Shown here in pieces: positions 36,670 through 53,824 of a stretch of 64,000 nt of DNA. The stretch lies in assembly GCA_965224705.1 (NCBI GenBank), contig OZ245056.1, positions 2,336,001 through 2,400,000 on the forward strand, given 5' to 3'. Each line of letters starts with the position of its first letter. Positions within the stretch are counted from its first letter, which is position 1. The position numbers and the translations under genes were made by a program. This DNA comes from Spirochaetaceae bacterium. Lineage in GTDB: Bacteria > Spirochaetota > Spirochaetia > DSM-2461. Under the pieces are notes generated by a model that was not told the DNA's origin, searched no databases, and worked only from the letters and a program-made list of their open reading frames with translations.

Positions 36670-39600
36670 ATGAAGAATCGCTTTTTCCATTGGTTACCAA
36701 CATCAGGAGTCTGGTCTTATCGATTTGCAAGTTTACTTTTTACCTGTGTCATCATTTCCTGGAGTGTTTTCCCCCAGACCATACCCCTTCTTCCCAGCAC
36801 CAACCATGCCTTGCTGGAGGTTTACATTGATCAGGCTGCCAGTACTCGGACTCGCAATGACTGGCTGCGCATAGCCCGAGGTGGATTTGAATCGGTTCTG
36901 GCCGAATGGGAGGCCGCTGCTGCCCTTGTTATTACTGACAGTCGTGTTCTGCAATCTGGTAGGAAGAAGGTGTTGAAAGATCTTGAACAAAGTCTGTCAA
37001 CAGGATTGTCCGAATGGGCTGTTACTCAGTTTCGCAACCAGCATGACCCCCGGGGATTCTCAGATTTCTGGGTTCAAATGAGAGAGGCCGCCCTGACCGC
37101 AACATTTGAATCCCGGAGCGGAGAATTTATCAAAGATGAAAAAGGGCGGCTGGTTGTTATAAAAGCTGACAGGGAGACACTTGCCGAAGATTCGGCTGCA
37201 TTTAAAAACTTCTGGGATGAGCTTATAGACCAGAAGGTTGATGATTGGTATTCAGGGGCCCAGACGGCTTTTTCGGAATTGCTTCTGGATTTTGGTTCCG
37301 AAGAAGCAGCCATTCTTGAAACATATCGTCAGAGTACACTTTCGTCACTGAAGCAGTCGTATTCCAGGGAACTTTCAAAAATGACCCGCCTTACCGAATC
37401 GGCTATGATTCACTATCGCCTCAAAAATATAGTTGATTCCGACTCTGATGCAGGCGGGCAGGATGTGATTCCCTCGGAAACCAGAGCCATGCTCAACCAG
37501 GTTCAAAACGATGCAGAGGCTGGTTTGACACGCTTGAAGGATGGACTGAATGTCAACCAGGATGCACCCGAAGTGAAGAAAGCTGATATAGATGCCGCCC
37601 GATGGAGGGCGAGTTTCCGGGAAGAACTGGAAAAGGGCATACTTCTCTGGAGGGAGGCTGAAGAGAGGCTTCTGATGAACCGGATCGAATGGGAGAAAAA
37701 GGCCGGTTATGATCTTGTTCTGACTCGAAAAAGGTGGGATAAGGCATTCCGGGAGTTGGCCGAAGCCAATGAAAAGTGGCTTGATGACTATCAGCGGATC
37801 TGGAATGAGGGTCAGGATCGCTGGGAAATCCAGAGCCGTCAGATGCAGAACACTCTGGAAAATGCCCGCAGTGAAATGGCATCAAACATCAATGGCCGCC
37901 ATGATTCCATGGTTCAGAGGGTGTCTACTCTGGTGGATATTCTTGGCCAGTCTCTGATAATGATGAGCACGGCCCGGGAAAACTTTGCGTACTGGATGAA
38001 CAAAGCAGCTCCCTACAGTCAGCAAACTCTGGAGCAGGTATCATGGGATATCGAGGATCTGAGAGCACGCTATAACAGAGCTGTTAATTTGAAGAAATAC
38101 AGTCATGGCCTGCGGTGGAGTTTTCTTTTCTTTAATGATAAAGCCGGAGAACAGGCCCGTTACTGGCTGGAAGACATCTACAACGTGTATCTGGAACGTG
38201 CGCAGGATGTCAGAGCCGATCTGTATCAGACATACAATTTATCGGTTTTCGGAGAAAGCGGACTTGATGAAATGGGACTCAAGGACCTTACCTCTGAACT
38301 GAAGAATGGTCAGTGGGAACAGATCTTTTTAGATGACTATCAGGTGGAACTGCTCAAGGCCAGAGCGGCTGCTTCGTATTGGGAGAAGGAACTGGAGATT
38401 GCCGCTGCCGTTACCCGCTACGCAGAAAAGCCGAGTTCCATTCTGGGAAGTGAAGAAGAAAAGAATGAGGTGGATAGAGCCTGGACGGAGAGCTTTGATG
38501 CGTACCAGAAGGCCCTCGAAACATATCAGGCGGGCATCAAAAAACTTGAAATGGCAAACCTGGATCTCAAGGAAAATAGCAGAAAATTGACCGAAGTGCA
38601 GAAAATTTTGACCGGATACAGGGAAGAACTCGCAGAAGCCCGGGCAGTTTACCAGAATGAAATACTTTTAAAAGAGCTGGATTCTTCCCGGTACTTCAAG
38701 GAACAGATTCGAGATTCCTATGTGAGGTTACTGGAACTTTACGGATTGACTGATGATGAGAAGAAAAGTACCGAGAGTTTCTATATGGATTATCTCAATA
38801 AGAATAGGGCATATGAGGGAGAATTCTCCCTCTCTCAGACATCTCTTCTGGTCACGGAACTCATTGAAGGTGATCCGGGCAGAATTCCTCCCATACTTTC
38901 TCTGCAGGATCTGGGAGTCCGTTATGAGAATGCCAGAGATTGGAATACGGCCAACTTGTTTTCTGCCAGTCGATTGAATCCAGACTTCATGGAGAAGTTT
39001 CAAAAGGCCTGGAACCTGAGCATTGATGAAGAGGTTTATCTCAAGGCGACCAAACTGGTGAAAGGCCTGTCAGCACAATATGATGCTGATGGTACACTGG
39101 ATACAGAGGCCATGGTCATTTTTCAGGCTGATATTGCTGCTATAACGGCAGGACTTTTGAGAAACTATAGAACCGAACTGGAATCGGTTGTGAATCAGAT
39201 AGTTCTTCTCACCTCTGAACATATTTTTGAGGACACAGGATGGGCGGGAAGCTCTGTTGATCTTTCCCGAGCTGAAAGTGAAGAGGATGTGAAATCAGCC
39301 CTCAAAGATGAAGCACAGCGGGCAAAGTTCACATTGATTGCAGATCGGATCACCTTCGATAAGGAAGTTCTGTTCAAGCTGAAGCAGAATCTTGACAATT
39401 GGATGGCAGGCGGTTTGAAAGAAACTGATTTTCGTCCCATCCAGCCCAATGATATCAATGATCAGCAATCAGTACTGGCCTGGATTTACTATTCCAGTCT
39501 CCATGAGAATGCTTCTTTCTCAGTCCGTCTCAAAAAGGATCTGGAATTCCTGGCTGAACTGGAAGAGGTTGCCGGTGAAGAGGAGACAATCAAGAATTTT

Positions 39601-42600
39601 TCCTCACTGGCTGAAGCCTTCCGTCAGCTTATTCCTGCCAATCCCCTTGCGTCCATCTACATCAATGGTAGAAGTCTTCTGATGAGAAATGATGAAGACT
39701 ACGGGGCGATCTTTCTGGCTGATCAATTCAGCACTCATGATCAGTCGGTCCAGGGTATTTCTCACTGGAATATCTTTGGCCCTTATTCTGTTTCCGGGCG
39801 GCAGATGGCAGAAAAATCGACCATTGCTGAAATCTATCGAATTATTTCCCGTCATGGTCTGGCCGATAGTTCAGATGGCGCATGGCAGTTCCTGAACCCT
39901 GAAACGGTATGGGAAAACGCTCATTTTCAATCCAGAGAAGAAGTTTCCCACATGCTTGTACACCTTTCCCGCGATCTGGAAGACATGCCGACGGCCCGAC
40001 CTGTAACCGAGCATGTTATGGAAGCTCTGGAAAGGTGGCAGAAAAGCCTGGAGGACTACTTCCTGGTAAAAAGTCATTCATTCTCTGATGATCTGGATGA
40101 AGAGGAGATACAAACCAGACTGGAAGAGCTTGAAGCTGCACGGGAAGTTGTGAAAATGAATACCCAGAGACACTCCCGCATTGAATCGACCAGTGAACCA
40201 TTGATGATGTTGGCCCTCAGTATTCTGATTCATCCCAATGAGAGTTCTGCCAGTGAAACCTTCATCAGAATTTCAGCCAGTGAATTAGCCGGGATGCTGA
40301 CAGATCTGAACTCTGATCTGGATGCAGAATCCACCTGGCTTCCTTTATTGACAGACCTTAAAGAGACCCTGGGAATTCAGCCGGATGATGAGGTGGCAGG
40401 CGTGCTGGACGATCATTTCTTACCAGCACGGATTCTGGCTGCACAATATGTGAGAGAGGCCTCTGGAATTGCCAGGGGAGAGGCTGCTTATGCCGATCAG
40501 ATTCTCTATTCCAGATTGACCGGGTTGTCTCTGGAGTCTTACGCATCCATGATCGGTCAATTTGAATCCGAAAACTCTCCTGGAGAGTTGTTAAACGATT
40601 CGTATGCTTCGAGAGGGAATCTGGATGAACTGCAGAATAATACCGCATGGGAGGACATTCTTGCCCCGGCTCTCTCAGATTTGCCGGGATCGAAACTGTA
40701 TCAGGCCACTCTGGCTGAGATCCTGATAACTCTGACCGATGAGCCCACTGCCCGGTGGTATCTGGCCCAGGAGGGCATCGACATCAACTTTGATTCTACA
40801 GGATACAGCCGCCATTATGCTCTGGATGAGAGAGCTGCACTTTTTTTTCTGAAGAGAGAAGCTCTGTGGGGGACGTTGACCGATGAGAAGAAGGAAGAGT
40901 TCAGCCTTTCCGATGAATCGGCCCGGGAACTGGAGAAGTTTTCCCTCATTGCTGAAGCACTTCATCGATACATACCGGCGGTGGATGGAAATCTCATCGA
41001 ATACCTTGGCGGCATCAATGGCATCAGTGAATCCGAAGCGGGCATCATCCTTTCAGACCGCTGGAACGATCTTTATTTTCAGAAGAGTATTCAGGAGCGT
41101 ACACTTTCTGACGCGGATCAGTTTCTCTGGGTTAATTCCAGCCTTGATTCTTTAAATCAATACCACAAAGCTGCGGCCTTTTCTCAAGTCAGTCATCTGG
41201 CAGAGAAAACTCGAAATACTCTGGCGGCAGAAAGTAAGAGCCTTGACCGGGAAGACTCCAGGCTGAAATATGCCGTGAGAAGAAATGAACTGAGGGAAAA
41301 ATCTCCGGGCATCTGGCGGCTTTACCTGGATGCAAAATACATGCAGCTGAGGGAGAATGAAGAATGGAGCGGATCAATCGGAGAGACAGAAGAATTCAGG
41401 ACAGGTGAGACTGAATTTATTGACCGGGTCCCGCTGTATCAGGGAGAATCTCTTCCCCTGGACAGCAGGAGAACTATTTATCAGGCGAAGGACAGGACTC
41501 AGGCCGCTCTTCTGGAAACCTTCAATCAGCTTGCTCTGACGACTGACAAATTGAATGATGTCCTCAAAACCCGGGACGAAGAAAGTATCAGTGATTCCTC
41601 CATGGAAAGATTCAAACTCTGGGCGGAAGAGCTTTCTTCCAGGATCGGAACTCACTTTGAACCTGAGAAGGATCCCGTTCCGACCGATGTCTTTCAGGTA
41701 AACCAATCTTTGAAAATAGAAGTGGAATCTTCTCGCAGTGAATGGCACAGGCGGGAGTCTGAGATTTCATCCCTCCAGTCAAAAATTCGCTCCTTTGGAC
41801 AGAGCATATCCAATTGGATCGAAAACATAGATCAACAATCCCGGCCTTTTATCACTGGATCTCAGCAGGTAATCAAAGATTTGAACGTAAAAATTGATGC
41901 GGTGGAAGAAAGATGGAAGAATCTCATCGGCCCGAAAGATGATCCCCAGGCGGATACTTACAGGGGAGCCGAATACCGCTACTCAAGGTCATATAATGAA
42001 GTTCAATCCAGTCTGAAATCCCTTGATGCAGCGAAGCAGAACTTCAAAAAGTCAAAGGCCATCCGGGATTACTCATCAAGCTATCATCTGTATCTTGGGC
42101 GGGATATTGCTTCGGAGGAAAGACCGGCAGACAGGGGTGAATCCCTCCAGATGGATGAACTTCAACAGATAATTGATGCTGCCCGTCCTGAGAAGTATCT
42201 GGGTCAGGTTTCCACCCAGTATCATCGGAGCAGGATTGTTGTGGAAACTCTTGAGAATATCCAGCAGAAAACAGCCGATTCTCTTTCTGAACGAGACAGC
42301 CTCTACAGAAAACAATCAGAAGAAGTGAACAGTGCCCGAAGGCTGGAGGTGGCTCTGAAGAGTCTCTCCAATGTTTTAACAGATTATACGGAAAAAACTC
42401 TGGGTGAATATGAGAGAATCTACCAGAAAAGGGAAGCAGTCCTCCGCAAATTCACCCTGGACCTTGGGGATGAGGACGACTTTATCTACAACTTCCGGAC
42501 TGATCCAGGCGGCTCAAAACTTATGGAAGAACAGGTTCTTCTCAACGGCATGGATGTACACTGGGACAGAGATGGCCGTGCACATATAACCTTTGATTTG

Positions 42601-45600
42601 AATGGATTTGATGAACCTGACAGGGAATCCAGTGTCAGTGGAGATCCTTCTGAAATAAAAGAATTAAGGAGGGTACGGAGTTTCTATGGCTACAAATTTG
42701 AGAAAACAAATCATGACTATTACATGGATATGATTGAGCAGGTTGATAGATCGTCGGAGTATATGAGCGAGGAAGAATTAAAGCAGCCCCTGTACCGATT
42801 GAGAGATGATGAAGAACGTCTATCCCGACTCAAACAGTTTTTCGGGATTGAACCTGCTGCTGATGGGATGCAGACGTATGAAGATCTTCTCCACCAACTT
42901 CTTGTTTTTATGAGCCGAAAAGATAGGAGCACCCTTGCCCAATGGCTTAACAGTGTTACCTATGAAACCGCACATTTCTGGAAGCATTTCCCCAGGAAAG
43001 GGAGTTCCGATTACGCCTATTCCATGGCCATGCGTTACAGTGTCTTTGGTAAGAGTCCTGAAGAGGTATACGGTGGGCGGATCAGGGAAGAATCTTCAGG
43101 AGCTTCTTATAATGTCTATATAAACTCATTCCAATCTGACTTTGAAGCCATTGAATCGAAAAGAGATACTCTCTATCAGTTCTTTAAATTCGCCGTGCTC
43201 AGTAACAAACTGAAGAGTTCATCGCCAATTATCAGCTTTCAGAGAATGAATGAGAGCCTGGGACAGATGCTGCTTTACGTGTATACAGAAAGGCGGGTTA
43301 GTAGTTGGTGGGATCGATTCTGGACTCCCCATGCCCACAGCGTAGCTCGAAAAAAGGCGGATGAGAACAGGGATTATTATACGGAACAGGCTCAAACTTT
43401 CCTCAACCTGTCCCGTGAATATGCAGATCTCACTCGAAAAGAGTCCTCGATAAAATCTCAATTGAATATTGTCAATGGAAAGGATGATCTGGGCATGCAG
43501 CAGCTCTTCACCGCACTGGGAGAAGCTGTATGGCATGCTTCTACTCGCCAGAAATTGGAGTTGGCGGACTGGTTACAAATAACAGAAGACCATGAATCCT
43601 TCCCTGATAAATGGACGGCCTCCCAATGGGCTGCAAACCTGGCCATCTGCTTTGCTCCCCTGACGAACACCCTGAACCCCACTGTTCTTGATGCAGCCGG
43701 AAGCTTTGGTCAGTTGATGGATTTACTGGTCGGGATTTCTACAATCCAGCGTGAATCCAGGGAAAATACCCGGAATACCTATCTCTACGGCCTGAATGGA
43801 ATTGCCGAAAACCATGAAAACAATGTTCTCGAGTTCAAAGAAGCCTGGAAGGATTTCCAGAAATCCGGCCTCCTGCCCCTTAAGAACTATAATCTGGATG
43901 ATGCGGAATCCAGATTGAACAGGTGGACTGTCAACGGGGAAAAATCAGATCTTGCGCCTCACATTCAGTACTACCTGAATCAGTATGTCCGGGATGCCGT
44001 CCCGGTTTCTCAAATCCAGATCGATCTTCAGACGGCAATGATGAAATACAGGGATCTCATCGGTGAGAATCCCCTGGAGGCCAATCAAGCCTTCATGGAA
44101 GCGGCCGAATACTTCTCGACGATACTGCAGAATTACCGTATCGGGGAAACCTTCATCGCATCGGCCCGTCAAGCCTGGAGTCAACCGGTGTTCAATAAGC
44201 GGGATATCCTGACAGATTCATGGAATGCGGACAAAACTCTTTATGAGGAACTTCTTTCCGGCAGTAATTCCCAGGGCATCCTGGCGAGCAGATATATTCT
44301 GCCCGGATTGAAGGAAATACTGGGTTCCGTGTTCAATGCCCGAATGGATGGCTGGCAGGAAGTTCGTCTGGCCCGGATGTCTGATATGGTGAAGGAAGGA
44401 CAGCTTCAACACGAGCAATGGAATAAGCAGATGCAGGCCATCCTTGCCCGGGGGAAGATGGAATGGCAGCTTGCCAGAATCCGGCTTGAGGCTGAAAGAG
44501 AAAACTGGAAGGAGGATTTTCAAAACAGTTTTCAGGAGAATCTGGAGGCCTGGAATCTTCAATACCAGCTTTTTCTGGAGAAAAAAACATCCTGGGTGTC
44601 TCAAACAACAAAGCAGGCGGTGAATATTGGCGACAGGGATATCCTTCTCCGATTCGGTGCCGCTGCCCGGGAATCTATTGCGGAAGCGGAAAAATTCGTC
44701 ATGCCTGACTTGCCGGATCCCCCCGATCTCAGTAATTTCATGGGCCGCATACTGGATACCACCCTCCTTGCCGGTCTGCTTGAAAATGCACATGGGTTAA
44801 ATGATGGCATTGATGCCATAGAGCCGGTTGTATTTACTTCTCTGACTGAAAACAGCTACCTCACCGGGGACATTCTGGACAAGATTCGTTTCTACCAGAC
44901 AGAAGAAAACGAAGAACTCAGTGCACGAATGGCATTAATTCAGTATGAACGCATGCTTGACACCCTTCATAAGGCTGTTAAGGGTCTCAGGGAGAGTGTT
45001 CACACAGCGAACGCCGATTTTGCTGACAGCATGAAGAACATGCTCATGGCTGGTGGTTTCAAGCGGGTGGGGAAAAATTTTATAAAGAACACAATGGTAA
45101 CTTCCACTCTGTGGGAAACCAAATACGCCGATCATTACATCGAAGGCAGCAGTGACTACGAACCCAATATAAGAAATCTCAGCAAAGAAATGGTTCCCGT
45201 CAGTGATTCCCTTATCGAAGAGTTTGGTTATGTCGGCATACAGGCTCTTCTTGACAGGGCTGTCCAGGGCCTTGAAGATGAGCAGAAACGCATTTTTGGC
45301 GGCGAGGCCGTTTACATAGCTCAAACAATGACTGAGTACTCAGAGAAATACGACGAGTATGATAACAGCAGTAAAAAATGGATAACACGTACCCGTACCT
45401 GGTATGAGGTTGATCCTGATGAAACCATCAGTGCAGAAGAATACAGAAAGCAGGTTCGAGCATGGGAGAATGCCGATTCCGATCAGCAGTCCCGATCCCG
45501 TTACATCAAGCAGAACGGAGGAGAATTCAACGCCCACATTGGCTATGCTCCTCAATTCAAGCCCCAGCCTGACACAAATTTACGCCTTTCTGACTGGAAG

Positions 45601-48060
45601 CAGAATGTCCGCTTCACGGGATCCGGGGAACAGGGCCGTATCATTGGCCTTTTCTCCCAGCATCAACTGATTGAAGCCGTCGCTATCGCTGAATTCAATA
45701 AACCTTTCTATGAGAAAAAACTCTGGGATGACCGTTTCATCGATTTCAAGTCCTTGAGTCTCCGATCAGTTGTTGATATCAGTACAGCCATTGCCGCTGC
45801 TGTAGTCAGTACCGTTGCGACAGTTGTTGTTCCTGCCGCTGGAATTCCGATGATGATGGCAACAGCCGCCCTGACGGCCGGTATTACACTGACCGATGAT
45901 CTGGTTTTTTCAATAGCTGATATGGCAACCGGTTACCGCACACCTGCACAGGCCATGGAAAGTCTGGTGAAAAAAAACTTATCCACCTTTGCCTCAAGTG
46001 CCATCGGTTCCATCGGGTCCGGAATCTTTGAAGGTGCCGGTGCCCTGGGAAAATCTCTCATCGTAGCCGCCCGGACCGGTACAAATCAGGTGGCAGTTTC
46101 CACGATTAACGCCATAGATTTCACGGCCGCTGATGGTGACTTCTTTGATGAAGATGCTTTTTTGGGAGGATTGAATCCAGGAAGTATCGTCATGGGTATG
46201 GCCGGGAGTTTTGTTCAATTCAGCCTGAATGAAGTCAATCTCGCAGGTTATCTTGGAATGGATTACAAACAGGGTCAGATTCTGCACCGAACCATTGGTA
46301 CAGGTGTCAATGCCTCACTGGAATACGGTTTTCAGGGAGAAACTTCTCTGAATCTTCTGAGCTTTTCGGACTTTTTCATGCCGTTCTCCGGGGATGGAAA
46401 GGCTGCTTCGAATTCCAGGATCTTCAACAGTTTTGCTCATGTTGATGTCGGGCTCTTACAGGTTAATCTGGGACAGGATGGTATAACCGCCAACATTGGA
46501 ATGGGTGGGCATCGGATGAATGCCGGTGCCATAGTCCATGCCATCAACGGACTTGACATTTATAGAGAGAATGCCCGTATTGCCCGTTCCAATATCGATG
46601 ATGATCTAACAGTCGCCATGCGGACCCTATACTCTGCCCGGGCTGAGAATGGAGGAACCCGGGTCATGAGAGATCTCTATGAGGACATTCTTGTCGGGAA
46701 AAGGGCCAGGCTGCGGACAGCAAACCGTCAGACATATGATGGAAAAACCGAACTACTCGGTGGGATACGTGTCATTAATTTGAACAAAGAGGGAAAGAGC
46801 GATTTTGATCTGGCTGTACTTCTTGCTCACGAGGCCTGGCGGGATGGAATTGATTCGGGAGAACTGGCCAATAAGATCGAAACCTCGAATGCGGCCTTTG
46901 GGCACATGAGTGTTGCGGCACAGATTGCTTCCACCTATGGATACGACTCTCTGAATGAACATAATGCTGATGAAGCCCGTGCCTTCAATGAAGCCGGTAT
47001 CAGTGGTGACTGGAATGAAGTTGGTGGAATGGTTGAACGATATGATTGGAGTGGAGAGTATTGGAAGTTAATCAGGAAAGAAGATGCATCGTATAAAATT
47101 GTATGGGATGGGGAAAAGAATCTGTATGATGAGAATGGAAATCTTCTTTCCATTGATACAACGGATTCCTATGCCCTGAGTCTTTCAAAATACCTGGGGT
47201 TAGCCAGAACAAATGACTGGCGCAGGGCGGCAGTTCTATTGACGGATAAGGGTGTCAATATAAACAAAGAACGAAATGGATACGTACAGAGCCGTGAGCA
47301 TCGGCAGGAAAATGGTCGGTTGGGTCTGGATGAAATACTCTCTTTCAATGTGGGAAGCAAGAGGCAGGGAGAAATCGATTCCTACCTGTCATCCCGTAAG
47401 CAATACATAAATAAATACAATATGTGGGATATGGTCAATCTTGATGGCAGGTTGTCGAAAATTGGAGGAAAACATGTCCGGAACAGAGCTGAAAGAGCTC
47501 GGATTGACTTCTATCAGGATGTCGCTTCGAATCCTGAGAATCTATGGAAAATGAGAGGAAATTCCCTGACCAATCCTGTGCAGACAGTTGAAGATGGTCA
47601 GGAGACCTATATTACTGTTGCAGACAGGTATAATTATACGGATGAAGCCGGTGTTCATTACAACGGAATCCATAGGGTTTTATTCAGCGAAAACAAAGCT
47701 GTGGATATTGGGAGTCAGGGAATATCCAGCCCGGTATTCACAATCGGCCCTACCACCTTCATGCGTCCGCGATGGCAAAACGTTGACAAAAAAGACTCCG
47801 GATATGGATATTTTGCATCAGGTTTGAGTCGTAACTTCGGATTTATATCAGGTCACTTGAATGATAATAACAGTATTCAGAAGGATTTAGATCATTTATT
47901 TGATAATGCGGACCAGGCGGGATTTAATGTTGTTCAACTACCTGATTACACTTCCTATGGGATGACCGGAACTACCGGGAACTCCACAGCCATACATCTT
48001 CATTATGAGGTAGGCCATTATGACACTATGTATGAGCGTTTGCGGAAGTGGCTGCCTTAG
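36670..48060 (+). CDS. Giant (3796 aa) putatively secreted protein: coiled-coil body, hydrophobic segment, HEAWRDG motif, C-terminal M23-peptidase-like domain
   Basis: 11.4-kb uninterrupted ORF; signal-peptide-like N-terminus; C-terminal AVDIG...SGHL...GTTGNSTAIHLHYEV. Confidence 0.85.
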   Translation: MKNRFFHWLPTSGVWSYRFASLLFTCVIISWSVFPQTIPLLPSTNHALLEVYIDQAASTRTRNDWLRIARGGFESVLAEWEAAAALVITDSRVLQSGRKKVLKDLEQSLSTGLSEWAVTQFRNQHDPRGFSDFWVQMREAALTATFESRSGEFIKDEKGRLVVIKADRETLAEDSAAFKNFWDELIDQKVDDWYSGAQTAFSELLLDFGSEEAAILETYRQSTLSSLKQSYSRELSKMTRLTESAMIHYRLKNIVDSDSDAGGQDVIPSETRAMLNQVQNDAEAGLTRLKDGLNVNQDAPEVKKADIDAARWRASFREELEKGILLWREAEERLLMNRIEWEKKAGYDLVLTRKRWDKAFRELAEANEKWLDDYQRIWNEGQDRWEIQSRQMQNTLENARSEMASNINGRHDSMVQRVSTLVDILGQSLIMMSTARENFAYWMNKAAPYSQQTLEQVSWDIEDLRARYNRAVNLKKYSHGLRWSFLFFNDKAGEQARYWLEDIYNVYLERAQDVRADLYQTYNLSVFGESGLDEMGLKDLTSELKNGQWEQIFLDDYQVELLKARAAASYWEKELEIAAAVTRYAEKPSSILGSEEEKNEVDRAWTESFDAYQKALETYQAGIKKLEMANLDLKENSRKLTEVQKILTGYREELAEARAVYQNEILLKELDSSRYFKEQIRDSYVRLLELYGLTDDEKKSTESFYMDYLNKNRAYEGEFSLSQTSLLVTELIEGDPGRIPPILSLQDLGVRYENARDWNTANLFSASRLNPDFMEKFQKAWNLSIDEEVYLKATKLVKGLSAQYDADGTLDTEAMVIFQADIAAITAGLLRNYRTELESVVNQIVLLTSEHIFEDTGWAGSSVDLSRAESEEDVKSALKDEAQRAKFTLIADRITFDKEVLFKLKQNLDNWMAGGLKETDFRPIQPNDINDQQSVLAWIYYSSLHENASFSVRLKKDLEFLAELEEVAGEEETIKNFSSLAEAFRQLIPANPLASIYINGRSLLMRNDEDYGAIFLADQFSTHDQSVQGISHWNIFGPYSVSGRQMAEKSTIAEIYRIISRHGLADSSDGAWQFLNPETVWENAHFQSREEVSHMLVHLSRDLEDMPTARPVTEHVMEALERWQKSLEDYFLVKSHSFSDDLDEEEIQTRLEELEAAREVVKMNTQRHSRIESTSEPLMMLALSILIHPNESSASETFIRISASELAGMLTDLNSDLDAESTWLPLLTDLKETLGIQPDDEVAGVLDDHFLPARILAAQYVREASGIARGEAAYADQILYSRLTGLSLESYASMIGQFESENSPGELLNDSYASRGNLDELQNNTAWEDILAPALSDLPGSKLYQATLAEILITLTDEPTARWYLAQEGIDINFDSTGYSRHYALDERAALFFLKREALWGTLTDEKKEEFSLSDESARELEKFSLIAEALHRYIPAVDGNLIEYLGGINGISESEAGIILSDRWNDLYFQKSIQERTLSDADQFLWVNSSLDSLNQYHKAAAFSQVSHLAEKTRNTLAAESKSLDREDSRLKYAVRRNELREKSPGIWRLYLDAKYMQLRENEEWSGSIGETEEFRTGETEFIDRVPLYQGESLPLDSRRTIYQAKDRTQAALLETFNQLALTTDKLNDVLKTRDEESISDSSMERFKLWAEELSSRIGTHFEPEKDPVPTDVFQVNQSLKIEVESSRSEWHRRESEISSLQSKIRSFGQSISNWIENIDQQSRPFITGSQQVIKDLNVKIDAVEERWKNLIGPKDDPQADTYRGAEYRYSRSYNEVQSSLKSLDAAKQNFKKSKAIRDYSSSYHLYLGRDIASEERPADRGESLQMDELQQIIDAARPEKYLGQVSTQYHRSRIVVETLENIQQKTADSLSERDSLYRKQSEEVNSARRLEVALKSLSNVLTDYTEKTLGEYERIYQKREAVLRKFTLDLGDEDDFIYNFRTDPGGSKLMEEQVLLNGMDVHWDRDGRAHITFDLNGFDEPDRESSVSGDPSEIKELRRVRSFYGYKFEKTNHDYYMDMIEQVDRSSEYMSEEELKQPLYRLRDDEERLSRLKQFFGIEPAADGMQTYEDLLHQLLVFMSRKDRSTLAQWLNSVTYETAHFWKHFPRKGSSDYAYSMAMRYSVFGKSPEEVYGGRIREESSGASYNVYINSFQSDFEAIESKRDTLYQFFKFAVLSNKLKSSSPIISFQRMNESLGQMLLYVYTERRVSSWWDRFWTPHAHSVARKKADENRDYYTEQAQTFLNLSREYADLTRKESSIKSQLNIVNGKDDLGMQQLFTALGEAVWHASTRQKLELADWLQITEDHESFPDKWTASQWAANLAICFAPLTNTLNPTVLDAAGSFGQLMDLLVGISTIQRESRENTRNTYLYGLNGIAENHENNVLEFKEAWKDFQKSGLLPLKNYNLDDAESRLNRWTVNGEKSDLAPHIQYYLNQYVRDAVPVSQIQIDLQTAMMKYRDLIGENPLEANQAFMEAAEYFSTILQNYRIGETFIASARQAWSQPVFNKRDILTDSWNADKTLYEELLSGSNSQGILASRYILPGLKEILGSVFNARMDGWQEVRLARMSDMVKEGQLQHEQWNKQMQAILARGKMEWQLARIRLEAERENWKEDFQNSFQENLEAWNLQYQLFLEKKTSWVSQTTKQAVNIGDRDILLRFGAAARESIAEAEKFVMPDLPDPPDLSNFMGRILDTTLLAGLLENAHGLNDGIDAIEPVVFTSLTENSYLTGDILDKIRFYQTEENEELSARMALIQYERMLDTLHKAVKGLRESVHTANADFADSMKNMLMAGGFKRVGKNFIKNTMVTSTLWETKYADHYIEGSSDYEPNIRNLSKEMVPVSDSLIEEFGYVGIQALLDRAVQGLEDEQKRIFGGEAVYIAQTMTEYSEKYDEYDNSSKKWITRTRTWYEVDPDETISAEEYRKQVRAWENADSDQQSRSRYIKQNGGEFNAHIGYAPQFKPQPDTNLRLSDWKQNVRFTGSGEQGRIIGLFSQHQLIEAVAIAEFNKPFYEKKLWDDRFIDFKSLSLRSVVDISTAIAAAVVSTVATVVVPAAGIPMMMATAALTAGITLTDDLVFSIADMATGYRTPAQAMESLVKKNLSTFASSAIGSIGSGIFEGAGALGKSLIVAARTGTNQVAVSTINAIDFTAADGDFFDEDAFLGGLNPGSIVMGMAGSFVQFSLNEVNLAGYLGMDYKQGQILHRTIGTGVNASLEYGFQGETSLNLLSFSDFFMPFSGDGKAASNSRIFNSFAHVDVGLLQVNLGQDGITANIGMGGHRMNAGAIVHAINGLDIYRENARIARSNIDDDLTVAMRTLYSARAENGGTRVMRDLYEDILVGKRARLRTANRQTYDGKTELLGGIRVINLNKEGKSDFDLAVLLAHEAWRDGIDSGELANKIETSNAAFGHMSVAAQIASTYGYDSLNEHNADEARAFNEAGISGDWNEVGGMVERYDWSGEYWKLIRKEDASYKIVWDGEKNLYDENGNLLSIDTTDSYALSLSKYLGLARTNDWRRAAVLLTDKGVNINKERNGYVQSREHRQENGRLGLDEILSFNVGSKRQGEIDSYLSSRKQYINKYNMWDMVNLDGRLSKIGGKHVRNRAERARIDFYQDVASNPENLWKMRGNSLTNPVQTVEDGQETYITVADRYNYTDEAGVHYNGIHRVLFSENKAVDIGSQGISSPVFTIGPTTFMRPRWQNVDKKDSGYGYFASGLSRNFGFISGHLNDNNSIQKDLDHLFDNADQAGFNVVQLPDYTSYGMTGTTGNSTAIHLHYEVGHYDTMYERLRKWLP

Positions 48061-48318
48061 AGCCTGTCGGACTTACGTCTCACGGCTCAATTTTTGCCCT
48101 TCTCTCCAGAAGCAAGCCTCCTGCTTGCTTCTGGAGAGCCGCCTTCGTTTTCTCGCTATCGCTCGGCACTCTCTCAGGATGCGAGTCCATAGACTCGCAT
48201 ACCCTGCTGCTGCGTTGCCAAAATACTCACGCAGCCCAGCTACGCTTAAGTTTTTGTCGCCTTGCATCAGGAAGAAATCATCAAAAATCGCCTCAAAGCC
48301 TTAAAGTCCGACAGACTC
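48060..48318. mobile_element. MITE family C, 259-bp copy (inverted relative to the 35542 copy)
   Basis: Ends GAGCCTGTCGGACTT...AAGTCCGACAGACTC; interior matches the reverse complement of 35542-35703 plus about 97 extra bp; flanks CTTA/CTCA. Confidence 0.88.
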
Positions 48319-48410
48319 CTCAGGAGATGCGGGTCGAATCTGCTGTTCGAGTTATGGGCAATTCGGGGGGTTCCCCCCAGGGCCTGGGATTGGTACACTA
48401 ATCATCCTAG

Positions 48411-48463
48411 GAGCCTGTCGAACTTCCGCCTTGCGGCGCAAAGTCTTAAAGTCCGACAGACTC
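48411..48463. mobile_element. MITE family C, 53-bp mini copy
   Basis: GAGCCTGTCGAACTT...AAGTCCGACAGACTC; flanks CTAG/CTGG. Confidence 0.8.
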
Positions 48464-48477
48464 CTGGAAGTGATATT

Positions 48478-49359
48478 ATGGATCAAATTACACAACTTGA
48501 AAGTCTTGGTATTCATATACTTCGGGAAGCATATGCTAATTTCACCAATCTCTGTATGCTGTGGTCAATTGGAAAAGACTCGACAGTACTCCTGTGGTTA
48601 GCCCGCAAGGCCTTCCATGGTCATGTTCCTTTTCCCCTGGTTCACATTGATACGCATTACAAGATTCCTGAGATGATTGAATACAGGGACAGGCTTACCC
48701 GTGAGTGGCATCTGCCAATGGTTTACGGCGAGAACAGGGCCGCTCTTGAAGCCCGGCAAACCTTTCCCGATGGCAATGTCGACCGTATCACCTGCTGTCG
48801 TCTGCTCAAGTCAGAAGCTCTCAGGAATACTCTGAACGGCACATGGCCGCGGTATCGATACAATCATCAGGATGGTGAGTACCAGGTGGACAGGGATACG
48901 GAGGCCTACACCGGAGTCATTGTGGGGGTAAGATCGGATGAGGAGGGATCCCGGTCCAAAGAAAGATACTTCTCTCCCCGGGATACGGAGAATATCTGGG
49001 AGGTGGAAGATCAACCTCCAGAGTTCTGGAACCAGTTCAAAACAGATTTTGCTCCGAATACTCATATCCGTATTCATCCCCTGCTGGATTGGACTGAAAC
49101 GAATATCTGGGAATACATAGAACGTGAATCCATTGCAACTGTTTCCCTCTACTACGATCAGGGAGATGGCCGACGGTACAGATCCCTGGGGTGTGGACCC
49201 TGTACCCATGCGGTGAAATCCGGCGCAAAAAACGTTCAGGACATCATCACTGAATTGAAGTCAGGTCAATTCTCAAATATTGCCGAGCGTTCAGGACGGG
49301 CCCAGGACAAAGAAGATGGCGGGGGACTGGAAACACTTCGCCGTGAAGGTTACATGTAG
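48478..49359 (+). CDS. cysD: Sulfate adenylyltransferase subunit 2
   Basis: [68 protein letters not shown]...LRREGYM; start moved to ATG 48478 because the upstream in-frame sequence is MITE. Confidence 0.95.
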
Positions 49360-51155
49360 TGACCGAACAGATGAATGTGGTTATCACTGGCCATGTTGAC
49401 CACGGAAAGAGTACTGTAATCGGTCGTTTGATGGCGGATACAGGCAGTTTACCGGATGGAAAACTCGAGCAGGTACAGGCTTCATGCCGCCGGAACTCAA
49501 AACCCTTTGAATATGCGTTCCTCCTGGATGCCCTCAAAGATGAACAGAGCCAGGGCATAACCATTGATTCGGCCCGGGTCTTCTTCAACACCAAGAAGCG
49601 TCACTACATCATAATTGACGCCCCCGGTCATATTGAATTCCTCAAAAACATGGTGACAGGAGCATCCAGGGCGGAAGCTGCCTTTCTCTGCATTGATGCT
49701 CATGAAGGAGTGCAGGAAAACTCCAAACGGCATGGGTACCTCCTATCCATGCTTGGAATCAAGCAGATATGTGTTCTGGTGAACAAGATGGATCTTGTAA
49801 ACTACGATTCCAGAACCTTCAAATCCGTTGTTCGGAAGTTTTCCCGGTTCCTACGGAATATCAATATGAGAAATGTTCCGTTTATACCGGTTTCCGGCAT
49901 GAACGGAGATAATATTACAACCATCAGCCAGGCAATGCCATGGTGGGATGGCCATACAGTTCTTTCCCTCATTGATTCATTTCAGAAGGAAGAGATTCCA
50001 TTGAACATGCCCTTCCGCATGCCGGTTCAGGGAGTGTATAAGTTTACGGCACTGGAAGATAACCGTCGCATTGTTGCCGGAACAGTTTCTTCGGGAACTC
50101 TTAAAAAAGGTGATGAGATTGTCTTTTATCCATCGGGGAAGAGAAGTCATATAGCCAGTATAGAGGATTTTCCGGACAAAAAGATTGAAGCAGTTGGAGC
50201 AGGTGAGGCAACGGGTTTCACCCTGACCGAACAGATTTACATCAAGCGCGGAGATCTTGCCGCAAAGTCAGATGAAAAACCTCCACTGTCCGGGAACTTG
50301 ATCAGGGTTAATCTTTTCTGGCTTGGTAAAAAACCTCTGGTCCGGGACAGGGAGTACTTCCTGAAAATAGGTACTGAGCGGGTCCGAATGCAGCTGGTGG
50401 ATACTATGAAAGTGATTGATGCTTCCAATCTTAATACTGATGGAATGAAGAAGATGGTTGAGCGTCATGATGTGGCGGACTGTGTTCTCACGACCCAACG
50501 TCCCATTGCTTTCGATCTGGTTGAAGATTTTCCCCAGACCAGTCGCTTTGTTATTGTCGATGGGTATGAAATTGCCGGAGGCGGCATTATTAATCAGTCT
50601 CTCCGGGGAAGAATTGCCCAGTACAGAGACCAGGTTATGAACCGGAACCTTAAATGGGATGTGGGTAATATTACCAGAGTGAGCCGAAGCGAGAAGTATG
50701 GACATCAATCAGCCCTGATTCTTGTTGGAGGACCTGAGGACAGACGCAAAGCAAATTTTGCACGAACTGTTGAAGAAAGGCTTTTCAACCTTGAAACCAA
50801 GGTGTACTACCTGGGAGTTCAGAATGTTCTGGCTGGCCTGGAATCTGATCTGGTTGTAAAAAGAGATGCCATTTACCCGAAGGACAGGGATGAAATGATA
50901 CGCCGCCTTGCTGAGTTGAGCAATATCCTTGTGGATGCCGGTATTGTTCTTGTGGCAACAGTATCTGAATTGAGTCAGGAAGAACAGGAGATTTTTACAA
51001 CTTCTGTTTCTCCAGTATCCGTTTTTACTATCTGGGTTGGCTCAGCAGAAGGTTCCGCTGTGAATGCGGACTACATAATTGAGAAGACGGAGACAGCTCC
51101 CGATCATCTGGATCCTGTGATGAAACTGCTTAAAGAGAAAGGAATTGGAATATGA
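49359..51155 (+). CDS. cysN: Sulfate adenylyltransferase subunit 1 with degenerate C-terminal APS-kinase-like domain
   Basis: [32 protein letters not shown]-terminal domain CysC-like (YYL...GLESDL...RRLAELS.ILVDAG) but without a P-loop. Confidence 0.92.
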
Positions 51156-52444
51156 GATTCTCACCAACTTCTTACCAACTGGTTTCAGTTAAATCGGGGA
51201 AAGTCTATTCCGATACCAATGAATGGACTTTGAGCCTTCCTGAAGAATCTCCATCCCTGATTCGGGCAGTGTACAGAGAGAAAAAGCTCAGTATCAGGAG
51301 TGATCTGGAAGGATTATACTGTTTTGCCGACTGGCTTCCTGTCAAACGAACGCTGAGGGGGGCATCGGTACCGATCACGTTCAGAAGTACAGCCCTGGCC
51401 GTTGAACTTGGCCTGAACAATCTCTGGATAACTTTCAGTGGGTGGTGGCCGGAGAAGGGCATCACCATGATCACCGGTACTTTTAAGGAATGCGAAGCAT
51501 ACACCGTATGTGCCCGTATGGGTGAACACTTTCCCCATGTTCTCGTGGTTGCTTCGGCCGGAAACACGGCAAGAGCTTTTGCCCATGTGTGTTCAGACAA
51601 TAACATTCCCCTGCTTCTTTTTGTTCCACAGGATAACACAGGTGATGTCTGGCTGGACAAACCCCTGGCTGATTGTGTGAAGCTTGTCTGTCCTGCGGCC
51701 GGTGGGGATTACTACGATGCGATTCGCATGAGTGAGGCTGCGGTTGCAGGTTCAAGCCTGTTTATTGCAGAGGGGGGGGCAAAGAACATCGCTCGCCGGG
51801 ATGGCATGGGAACCACAGTATTATCTGCCGCGGTAATCATTGGCCGTATCCCGGATGTCTACTTCCAGGCAGTGGGAAGTGGAACCGGGGCCATTGCCGC
51901 GTGGGAGGCAGCCATGCGGCTGGCTGCTGATGGCCGATTCGGAAAGAATTCCATGCGGCTTATGGTGAGTCAGAATGAGCCTTTTACACCTATGGCGGAT
52001 TCCTGGAATGCTGACAGCCGGGATTTTATTGTAAAAGATGATGAATCGGCGAGAAAGCTTGCAGGACAGGTGAATGCAAAGGTTCTCACCAATCGACGAC
52101 CTCCCTGGGCAATCCCCGGCGGTTTGTATGATGCCCTGAAATCCACGGGGGGATCTATTCTTACCGCATCCAATGAGGAAGCCTTCAGGGCAGGTGAAAG
52201 ATTCGCAGAACTGGAAGGTTGTGATATCACTCCGGCAGCTTCAGTGGCCGTGGCTTCCTTATTCGATTCAGTAAAAACGGGCAAAGTCGGAAAGGATGAA
52301 GTGGTGATGCTCAATGTAACAGGTGGTGGAGTCCGCGGAATAAAAGAACATGGAGAACTGCATCACATCATCCCGGAGGAAATACTCCCATTGGATTCTT
52401 CTGATGAGAGTATTGTTGAAATCTGTGAGAAGCTCTTCAACTGA
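51152..52444 (+). CDS. Cysteate synthase (CapA-like, threonine-synthase fold)
   Basis: SLIRAVY, FADWLPV, FSGWWPE...TGTFKECEA (PLP Lys), [64 protein letters not shown]. Confidence 0.9.
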
Positions 52445-52534
52445 ATTCAATATTTCATGTATAGTGCACAGGAAGGATATCGCTGAATGCAAACTGCAGG
52501 CGAACCCTACCAGCTGATGAGTATTGGAGATTAA

Positions 52535-53824
52535 ATGATTGATATTTTTGCAAAATGTGCGACCAGTGAAGGATACTTCGGAGAACTCAGGACTGCCGGA
52601 GACCGATTTTACACATTACCGGTTATCGATGACATTCCCGGCCCCCTGATGAAGATTCAGGGTCGTGAAAGCATTATGTGGTCGGTCAATAACTACATCG
52701 GCCTTGCCAATGACGCAGAAATCAAAGCTGCTGCGATTGAGGCGGCGGAGAAGTGGTCTGTCAGTTCACCGATGGGCTCCCGTATGATGAGTGGTACGAC
52801 AGGTGAGCATCTGGATCTGGAGAAGTCATTGGCTGAATATGCCCGAAAAGAAGACGCTTTCCTGTTTAATTACGGTTACATGGGTGTCGTGGGAACTGTT
52901 ACCTCCCTCTGTGGACCTGATGATATTCTCATCGTGGACAGGCTTGCGCATGCCTGTATAATTGATGCGGCGTTCAGTGCGAAGGGCGGTCAGGGAGGTA
53001 AACCCATGGTCCGGTTTTTTCGTCACAATGATATGAATGATCTGGAATCGGTACTTGGCAGTGTCAACAAAAACCGTAAGGGCGGGGTGATGATATTGAT
53101 CGAAGGTGTCTACGGAATGACTGGAGACCTGGCTGATCTTCGGAATATTACAATGCTGGCAGAAAAGTACAGTGCCCGTATATTCATTGATGATGCCCAT
53201 GGCATTGGAGTTATGGGTAATCAGGGTCGAGGTACGGCTGATTTCTTTGGTGTCCAGGAGAAAATTGACATTTATTTTGGCACATTTGCGAAAACATTTG
53301 CTTCTATCGGGGGGTATGCGGCTACAAGCACTCAGGTTCGGGACTGGATTGCCTTCAATGCTCGAACTCAGGTCTTTGCCAAAGCCCTTCCCATGGTCTA
53401 TGTTAAATCCCTTCAAGTTGCCCTCAAGAAGGTTATCAATGGAAATGACAGACGTGCTGTCATGTGGGAACGTTCCAACCGATTAAAGAATGGTCTTCGA
53501 GAACTGGGCTGTCATATCGGTTCTGGTGAATCCCCCATATGTGCTGTTTACATTCCTGCCGGGGAAAGTCTGGAAGAACTGATCAAAAAAGTTCTCACCT
53601 ATCTGAGAAGAAATGGAGTTTTCTGCACAGGAGTTATCTGGCCCGTCATTCCCCCGGGGATTGTGATGCTTCGAATGATTCCAACTGCCGCTCATACAGA
53701 AGAACACGTGGCTGAAACAGTTGAAGTATTTAGACGAATGCGGGAAGACTTGCATGTGAAGTTTTCTCTGGCTGAAGAGGAAATTGCCAAAGTTGATAAA
53801 ATATACAGGAAGGGAGCTTTATAA
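52535..53824 (+). CDS. PLP-dependent alpha-oxoamine synthase, probably cysteate C-fatty-acyltransferase (CapB/SulA-like)
   Basis: WSVNNYIGLA, PMGSRMMSG, NYGYMG, HACIID, RHND, EGVYGMTGD, DDAHG, GTFAK253, QVFAK283ALP; follows cysteate synthase. Confidence 0.8.
   Translation: MIDIFAKCATSEGYFGELRTAGDRFYTLPVIDDIPGPLMKIQGRESIMWSVNNYIGLANDAEIKAAAIEAAEKWSVSSPMGSRMMSGTTGEHLDLEKSLAEYARKEDAFLFNYGYMGVVGTVTSLCGPDDILIVDRLAHACIIDAAFSAKGGQGGKPMVRFFRHNDMNDLESVLGSVNKNRKGGVMILIEGVYGMTGDLADLRNITMLAEKYSARIFIDDAHGIGVMGNQGRGTADFFGVQEKIDIYFGTFAKTFASIGGYAATSTQVRDWIAFNARTQVFAKALPMVYVKSLQVALKKVINGNDRRAVMWERSNRLKNGLRELGCHIGSGESPICAVYIPAGESLEELIKKVLTYLRRNGVFCTGVIWPVIPPGIVMLRMIPTAAHTEEHVAETVEVFRRMREDLHVKFSLAEEEIAKVDKIYRKGAL

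Follow-up and report, generated by a model that had tools for sequence, protein, structure and literature searches.

Four co-oriented genes, encoding the two subunits of a sulfate adenylyltransferase, a cysteate synthase and a predicted cysteate acyltransferase (CFAT), lie between a dispersed repeat and a convergent tRNA gene in the analysed window, a 64,000-nt stretch of a spirochete genome. Coordinates are positions in this window unless marked G000, the host genome.

48060..48470, no strand: dispersed repeat element immediately 5' of cysD, in the position that an SDR gene occupies in several genus relatives (genome matches, contig ends)
48478..49359, + strand: cysD, sulfate adenylyltransferase small subunit, 293 aa, ATG start (PRK05253 327.7 bits, cut-off 195; PF01507)
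49359..51155, + strand: cysN, 598 aa, the ATP sulfurylase GTPase subunit, ending in an APS-kinase-like tail (TIGR02034 337.1 bits, cut-off 336.1)
50709..51038, + strand: degenerate APS-kinase domain of CysN, likely inactive (apsK TIGR00455 40.5 bits against a cut-off of 138.7; PF01583 weak)
51152..52444, + strand: archaeal-type cysteate synthase, a PLP enzyme, 430 aa (TIGR03844 458.8 bits, cut-off 324.9; PDB 9K3C, E 8e-152)
52535..53824, + strand: predicted cysteate acyltransferase (CFAT/SulA/CapB clade, SH-aLRT 100), 429 aa (PDB 28EH, E 4.7e-96; 7U7H, 9.5e-95)
52778..52780, + strand: Ser82 codon; Ala in solved CFATs, Ser in SPT (alignment)
53291..53293, + strand: Lys253 codon, the PLP lysine (CO-CFAT Lys250; alignments)
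53381..53383, + strand: Lys283 codon (SulA Lys281, CO-CFAT Lys280), the residue distinguishing CFAT from SPT (alignments; PMC9304779)
53863..53946, - strand: tRNA-Leu(TAA), convergent, at the downstream end of the cluster (ARAGORN)
G000 1159438-1160496, outside the window: two-domain VOC metalloenzyme with a glyoxalase fold (PF00903)

The sequence-only reading had described four co-oriented genes with overlaps and a 90-bp gap, and the open reading frames and family profiles bear this out: the cysD stop and the GTG start of cysN have one base in common, cysN runs 4 bases into the cysteate synthase gene, and a gap of 90 bases follows before the CFAT gene. Its call of a spirochete host is likewise confirmed by two FlaA genes within the window and by the nearest named relatives, Spirochaetaceae MAGs at 69-96% identity. 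Upstream of cysD, positions 48050-48477 match 196 merged places in the genome, and loose contig ends accumulate at 48060 and 48320; an SDR gene lies 5' of cysD in loci L083, L084, L088, L089, L092 and L110. A promoter and terminator scan returned promoter signals at chance level, with none upstream of cysD. In three RNA runs from one study, cysN, the synthase and the CFAT gene are covered at a depth of 2-5 by short contigs of near-identical sequence, with no silent control region for scale. The four genes are predicted to be co-transcribed.

The cysteate synthase and the acyltransferase

The synthase scores above the TIGR03844 cut-off and matches the cysteate synthase 9K3C over its full length, with Lys112 aligned to the PLP lysine motif, whereas threonine synthases match at 2e-10 or weaker. 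The function class assigned in the sequence-only reading therefore stands, and the CapA type named there does not: by family score, the enzyme is of the archaeal/Alistipes type (TIGR03844). CapA was set apart through PMC10191378 rather than by direct sequence comparison; that study describes the archaeal-type synthase as distinct and distant from CapA and assigns it to Alistipes and Odoribacter. The nearest named non-spirochete relatives are from Prolixibacteraceae (57-59%), whose rows nest next to this genus with a support of 96 in an unrooted FastTree of 36 rows (6 best matches). A transfer from spirochetes to Prolixibacteraceae is suggested as a lead only.

The fourth gene product has its two best solved relatives in CapB/CO-CFAT of Capnocytophaga ochracea (PDB 28EH; PMC13692747) and SulA of Alistipes finegoldii (PDB 7U7H; PMC9304779). 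It scores 325 and 321 bits to these two CFATs against 213 for the best SPT (E 3.9e-62), and falls below every curated alpha-oxoamine synthase cut-off (SPT-CFB 277.5 against 640, BioF 275.4 against 426, Kbl 271.1 against 460). In a quick tree (79 of 120 sequences, 18 Bacteroidota rows, 30 divergent CFATs of the Bacteroidota sample left out), it forms one clade with Bacteroidota CFATs (SH-aLRT 100, branch 1.09), with the rows that exceed the SPT and Kbl cut-offs falling elsewhere; PDB sequences were not among the rows, and the anchor L112/L149 scores 610 bits to 7U7H. The tree check of the 429-aa protein places it with CFATs and not with SPT or Kbl. Spirochete CFATs branch outside the sampled Bacteroidota CFATs (identity only about 36-41%), and this quick tree shows no sign of a recent transfer from Bacteroidota, as its spirochete rows do not fall within the set of 18 from Bacteroidota.

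According to PMC9304779, a second active-site lysine (SulA K281) separates CFAT from SPT. Its equivalent, K283, is kept together with Y115, E190, A252 and K253 in 65/65 spirochete and 31/31 Bacteroidota CFATs aligned, and in none of 24 other alpha-oxoamine synthases is a K283 equivalent found. The catalytically required G114, Y115, H139 and K253 are all present and F248 is also CFAT-type; position 113, Phe in SulA and CO-CFAT, is Tyr here as in 11 of the 31 Bacteroidota sequences. SulA, CO-CFAT and the spirochete enzyme share the PLP lysine, the second lysine, Asn52, Gly114-Tyr115, His139, Cys141 and a single clade, whereas the spirochete enzyme has Ser82 for Ala, Tyr113 for Phe and Val280 for Met/Leu. 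Ser82 occurs in 64/65 spirochete and 0/31 Bacteroidota CFATs aligned, with one further CFAT of the Bacteroidota sample (L233) having Ser there; Ala82 has been described as a small residue lining the pocket beside the cysteate side chain, and not as a required one. Overall, solved relatives, K283 and clade agree with the earlier proposal that the alpha-oxoamine synthase is a CFAT. The fourth gene is likely a CFAT, for which cysteate condensation and a preference for cysteate over serine are predicted.

Sulfite supply, distribution and a co-occurring VOC protein

An APS reductase expected elsewhere in the genome was found at G000 1663217-1664254 (TIGR02055, 251 bits over 235), and SerC is also encoded above its cut-off. 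In L090, L091, L238, L239, L244 and L245, cysH lies directly 3' of the CFAT gene. The proposed coupling to sulfate activation holds in that cysD-cysN adjoin the synthase and CFAT genes and the APS reductase is in the genome. Searches for siroheme sulfite reductase (NIR_SIR) found none in G000 or among the synthase-positive genomes of the order, and sulfopyruvate decarboxylase ComD had 0 matches in G000 (95% complete), with a control search positive in 6/14 genomes. An intact APS kinase was not found in G000, and the CysN tail, here and in genus relatives, lacks the canonical APS-kinase P-loop. With none of these three enzymes found, the sulfite likely goes to cysteate.

Within a sample of 301 Spirochaetota genomes, the cysteate synthase was found in 25, the CFAT in 24 (matches of E 1.2e-90 or better, the next being 1.5e-77) and a VOC protein in 20. 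All CFAT and VOC carriers fall inside the 25, five of which show no VOC. The host's own order includes 23 genomes of at least 90% completeness, 17 with all three genes and six with none, although kin are not independent and such co-occurrence counts overstate. PF01507 (CysD/CysH) is present in those 17 and in G324, the only one of 38 order genomes with siroheme sulfite reductase. A synteny survey across Spirochaetota, suggested in the sequence-only reading, revealed that the gene order recurs: of 31 named spirochete loci, many of them running to a contig edge, 11 keep cysD-cysN-synthase-CFAT unbroken, and the order continued by cysH recurs in several families. Most loci have the synthase and CFAT genes side by side, and the two still occur together where they are unlinked.

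The VOC protein, which the sequence-only reading had missed, is an addition from this co-occurrence analysis. It is encoded within 19 of 31 named CFAT loci, and in a sample of 191 Bacteroidota genomes it was found in 38 of 70 with CFAT and in 0 of 121 without; SDR, CFAT and VOC genes are contiguous in one genome of that sample (L233). The predicted model (pLDDT 95) matches the paired glyoxalase fold, including PcpA (4HUZ; Z 24.2, rmsd 3.1, 276 aligned) and maize glyoxalase I (6BNN/5D7Z; Z 22.2 to 6BNN), and GLOD4 and methylmalonyl-CoA epimerase are alike in fold, whereas identity to known two-domain VOC enzymes is 11-18%. Sequence searches gave no solved close relative, and structure and Atlas searches gave generic VOC matches only, so that function is not assignable from fold. 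Gln/His10, Glu71, His/Glu258 and Glu309 are candidate metal ligands, with E71 and E309 in 70/70 sequences. The sulfonolipid and capnine papers compared do not mention this protein.

Late steps and the candidate lipid product

No protein could be identified as the CapC or the N-acyltransferase that the sequence-only reading supposed to lie elsewhere in the genome, and neither of two candidates examined follows the distribution of the pathway. Fifteen SDR matches in G000 are candidates for a 3-ketocapnine reductase (CapC/KCR). One of them, at G000 388537-389343, is linked by synteny to the pathway genes in genus relatives as well as in L233/L246 and may be CapC; across the phylum sample it occurs in only 1 of 25 synthase-positive genomes, and a family that lacks CFAT has it in 37 of 45 genomes. 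A ceramide-synthase-like GNAT protein, which has no NCBIfam match at 1e-15, was rejected as the N-acyltransferase, being present in 16 of 38 order genomes including four without the pathway and sitting in another cluster. The sulfonolipid literature compared names no N-acylating enzyme of the pathway.

For the sulfonolipid product, the genes of the predicted first steps are in place, and no finished capnine lipid appears in one lipid table for likely carriers: Table S46 of PMC11129491, covering one growth condition and positive-mode ions, lists none for Oceanispirochaeta strains M1 and M2. These strains are probably the source of P0160, a K283-bearing CFAT orthologue recorded under 'unclassified Ocean...'. 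For Labilibaculum, a companion study reported capnine lipids at 10-33%. A sulfur-lipid reading of the 'unknown phospho-sugar lipid' in Table S46 was rejected, as a phosphorus formula fits within 0.4 mmu and a one-sulfur formula is off by 1.3-1.7 mmu. LpxC was not found in G000.

Interpretation and comparison with known systems

From the gene identities, residues, tree position, gene order and co-occurrence, we infer that the four genes quite probably form a dedicated module leading from sulfate to a cysteate-derived 3-ketocapnine-type base, the predicted start of a sulfonolipid. CysD and CysN would form APS, and sulfite would be released from it by the APS reductase, whose gene lies elsewhere in this genome and immediately follows CFAT in several relatives. 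The synthase would add sulfite to O-phosphoserine from SerC, and the CFAT would condense the cysteate with an acyl thioester. Because no sulfite reductase was found, cysteate is the likely sulfite sink. The VOC protein may have as its substrate the keto intermediate, or what is made from it.

A more far-reaching version is offered tentatively and is on the whole doubtful: an old spirochete branch of sulfonolipid synthesis, in which VOC isomerises or epimerises 3-ketocapnine to give a non-textbook sulfonate lipid missed by standard capnine lipidomics, with VOC an overlooked pathway component in roughly half of the Bacteroidota that have CFAT, and with the Prolixibacteraceae synthase possibly derived from spirochetes.

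The archaeal cysteate synthase family is known from coenzyme M synthesis, and its presence here would fit a non-lipid use of cysteate (coenzyme M, an osmolyte or an exported sulfonate), with the CFAT as a bystander or a maker of trace signal molecules. The failure of the SDR and GNAT candidates to track, leaving no reductase or N-acyltransferase assigned, and the lack of a bulk sulfonolipid in Table S46 point the same way. Coenzyme M was rejected on the ComD result, and non-lipid use in general is improbable given the adjacency and co-occurrence of synthase and CFAT and the four loci (L094, L099, L108, L114) that keep CFAT with the synthase absent from its usual place.

The synthase might also make cysteate while the CFAT has shifted to serine or another small amino acid, yielding a sphingoid or other amino-ketone, as the SPT-like Ser82, the roughly 40% identity to Bacteroidota CFATs and the capnine-free Table S46 would allow. 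This is very improbable in view of the CFAT-type K283, Y115, E190, F248 and A252, the CFAT clade, and a CFAT never found without the synthase in the 301 genomes; additionally, in CO-CFAT, an A82S mutant exists and no pocket mutant gained serine activity. That cysD-cysN belong to ordinary assimilation of sulfate, or to sulfation, and adjoin the other genes incidentally, as Alkalispirochaeta-type loci with synthase-CFAT without adjacent cysDN and the unlinked genes of family f16 might suggest, is scarcely credible given that no siroheme sulfite reductase was found in G000 or the synthase-positive genomes of its order, the lack of an intact APS kinase for PAPS in G000 and the five-gene order recurring across families.

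Starting from phosphoserine and sulfite, the favoured sulfate-to-sulfonolipid module would carry out the first two reactions of the CapA-CapB-CapC capnine pathway (PMC10191378, PMC11211663). It differs in having another synthase family, a dedicated cysD-cysN-cysH supply, a co-occurring VOC, a reductase at candidate level and a predicted lipid. Unlike SulA and CapB, the spirochete CFAT, with its predicted activity, is clustered with sulfite-supply genes. A 2023 review regarded sulfonolipid synthesis as apparently confined to Bacteroidota; a gut survey assigned its filtered matches to 42 species of that phylum and one of Firmicutes. No description of the pathway in spirochetes was found in the literature, and the phyla in Fig. 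4 of PMC11211663 (13) and in PMC11525784 (21) could include Spirochaetota.

With a conserved version on separate branches in several spirochete families, bioactive sulfonolipids would reach a second phylum, one with animal-associated members (Olavius and Stewartia records), and would be weaker markers of Bacteroidota. The VOC protein provides a new candidate enzyme for a pathway with unassigned late steps, and the cultured strains among the carriers would allow the pathway to be tested.

The gene cluster and its enzymes

The four open reading frames proposed by the sequence-only reading, with their overlaps and the 90-base gap, were all borne out by the ORF coordinates.

Features of the cluster and its flanks, in window coordinates
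48060..48470, upstream of cysD: dispersed repeat, present at ~196 places in the genome
48478..49359, + strand: cysD
49359..51155, + strand: cysN
51152..52444, + strand: cysteate synthase
52535..53824, + strand: cysteate acyltransferase (CFAT)
Downstream of the cluster, convergent: tRNA-Leu

The repeat has sharp ends near 48060 and 48320 and occupies the spot where relatives carry an SDR (candidate reductase family) gene; a 3796-aa ORF (36670-48060) with no Pfam match ends just short of it. Cluster G+C is 48.1%, compared with 47.1% for the genome. The spirochete host assigned earlier agrees with FlaA genes inside the window and with the nearest named CFAT relatives, namely Spirochaetaceae MAGs, an Olavius algarvensis endosymbiont and Alkalispirochaeta-type genomes.

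The acyltransferase assignment of the fourth gene likewise stood: it scored 325 bits against CO-CFAT and 321 bits against SulA, versus 213 bits for the best serine palmitoyltransferase (SPT), and in a quick IQ-TREE run (79 of 120 sequences) the CFATs formed a single clade (SH-aLRT 100) that excluded the SPT- and Kbl-like sequences. The spirochete members fell outside the 18 Bacteroidota rows, with support for spirochete monophyly of only 75. In the alignment, K283 occurs in 65/65 spirochete and 31/31 Bacteroidota CFATs and in none of 24 other synthases; Lys281 is given in part of PMC9304779 as the residue distinguishing SulA from SPT, and Tyr115, Lys250 and Lys280 in part of PMC13692747 as weighing most in CO-CFAT. 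The pockets differ at one position, where spirochetes carry Ser82 (64 of 65 rows), whereas Bacteroidota carry Ala in all 31 aligned rows.

The product of the third gene is a cysteate synthase of the archaeal type: it scores 458.8 bits on TIGR03844 and matches PDB 9K3C at E 8e-152. The accessible part of PMC10191378 distinguishes this type from CapA and places it in Alistipes and Odoribacter instead of CapA; the earlier CapA label is therefore unsuitable.

Sulfate activation and sulfite supply

CysD and CysN each scored above the cut-off of their family. CysN ends in a remnant of an APS kinase that scores far under the APS-kinase cut-off and lacks the canonical P-loop. An APS reductase had been expected outside the window, and the genome search located one above the TIGR02055 cut-off, along with SerC.

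Features elsewhere in the genome (G000)
C1:1663217-1664254 (L122): APS reductase
C1:612129-624981 (L254): separate cluster of FabF-like, ACP, HMG-CoA-synthase-like, enoyl-CoA hydratase-like, SDR and GNAT genes

The L122 enzyme is extended at its N-terminus by a further domain (~100 aa) that bears a CxxC motif and may serve as a built-in redox partner. In relatives, cysH lies directly 3' of CFAT. Neither a siroheme sulfite reductase nor ComD was found in G000, and searches of the order detected the siroheme enzyme in just one of its 38 genomes, which lacks cysteate synthase. These absences, in genomes 71-99% complete, make it likely that sulfate activation here feeds cysteate synthesis rather than assimilation.

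L254 also holds a second alpha-oxoamine synthase, and its GNAT resembles bacterial ceramide synthase; a second, branched sphingoid-type lipid pathway is possible.

Distribution, gene order and a VOC partner

Cysteate synthase was found in 25 of 301 Spirochaetota genomes, with CFAT in 24 of these and in none of the other 276; family f16 carries the synthase in 17/17. Within the order (n = 38), synthase and CFAT occur in 26 and 25 genomes, respectively, and both in the same 17 of 23 near-complete genomes (at least 90% complete). Gene order varies: the 31 named loci include the full cluster (11), synthase-CFAT pairs without cysDN (10) and CFAT without a neighbouring synthase (4), and the genes are unlinked in f16.

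At four Alkalispirochaeta-type loci (L094, L099, L108, L114), TetR is directly followed by CFAT and the synthase is absent from its usual position; these may depend on external cysteate. At L109:5584-7722, SDR directly precedes CFAT without cysDN or synthase, and frameshifts in both genes indicate decay or assembly error. SPT-like proteins occur in several CFAT-negative spirochete families (L076-L081; L076 with 589 of 640 bits on SPT-CFB). In the Bacteroidota sample, L212 and L221 (genome G448, C3:207852-211755) place an SPT above the curated cut-off ~1.5 kb from CFAT; part of PMC10191378 suggests that the two pathways are possibly mutually exclusive.

The sequence-only gene list overlooked a partner, a two-domain glyoxalase-fold (VOC) protein of 350 aa that co-occurs with CFAT in both phylum samples. 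It lies inside 19 of the 31 named loci and, in G000, 1.2 Mb from the cluster. All 20 VOC-positive genomes among the 301 Spirochaetota belong to the 25 with synthase, the order's near-complete carriers are the same 17 of 23, and all 38 carriers among 191 Bacteroidota-sample genomes belong to the 70 with CFAT, one having SDR-CFAT-VOC contiguous. In these samples VOC therefore depends on CFAT, while many CFAT carriers dispense with it. Its confident structure model (pLDDT 95) shares a fold with PcpA, glyoxalase I and GLOD4; sequence identity to these is 11-18%. The candidate ligands (Q/H10, E71, H/E258, E309) and three invariant arginines suggest a predicted metal site of isomerase/epimerase type acting on an anionic substrate. 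Rhodothermales are among the named homologues, and their relative Salinibacter makes halocapnine (part of PMC5167729), a link that is only suggestive.

Late steps, lipid evidence and overall reading

The SDR gene that lies 5' of cysD in six genus relatives is also encoded in G000; its presence does not follow that of the pathway across the phylum, and neither does that of a GNAT, the candidate N-acylation enzyme. A more serious conflict is that section 11 and Tables S45-S47 of PMC11129491, which list intact polar lipids for the Oceanispirochaeta strains M1 and M2, contain no capnine lipid. A CFAT orthologue is recorded for unclassified Oceanispirochaeta (P0160) with a median 85% identity to genus g128, where all nine CFAT carriers have synthase and VOC; M1 and M2 are predicted to hold the whole cluster. 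Capnine lipids of 10-33% are reported in Labilibaculum in part of PMC12927429, and the method is therefore able to detect them. The predicted product might form in small amounts or only under some conditions, be secreted, or differ in structure.

The pathway is known mainly from Bacteroidota, and in the literature searches no title or abstract start reported it in spirochetes; the string 'spiro' is absent from the accessible parts of PMC9304779, PMC11525784, PMC10191378, PMC11211663 and PMC12927429. Part of PMC11211663 describes loose homologues in 13 phyla, shown in a figure, among which Spirochaetota may be included. Combined, these results establish the four-gene module and make it quite probable that it produces a cysteate-derived long-chain base. 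As a variant of an established pathway, it lies in a phylum for which no report was found, and it comes with one new candidate enzyme, the VOC protein.
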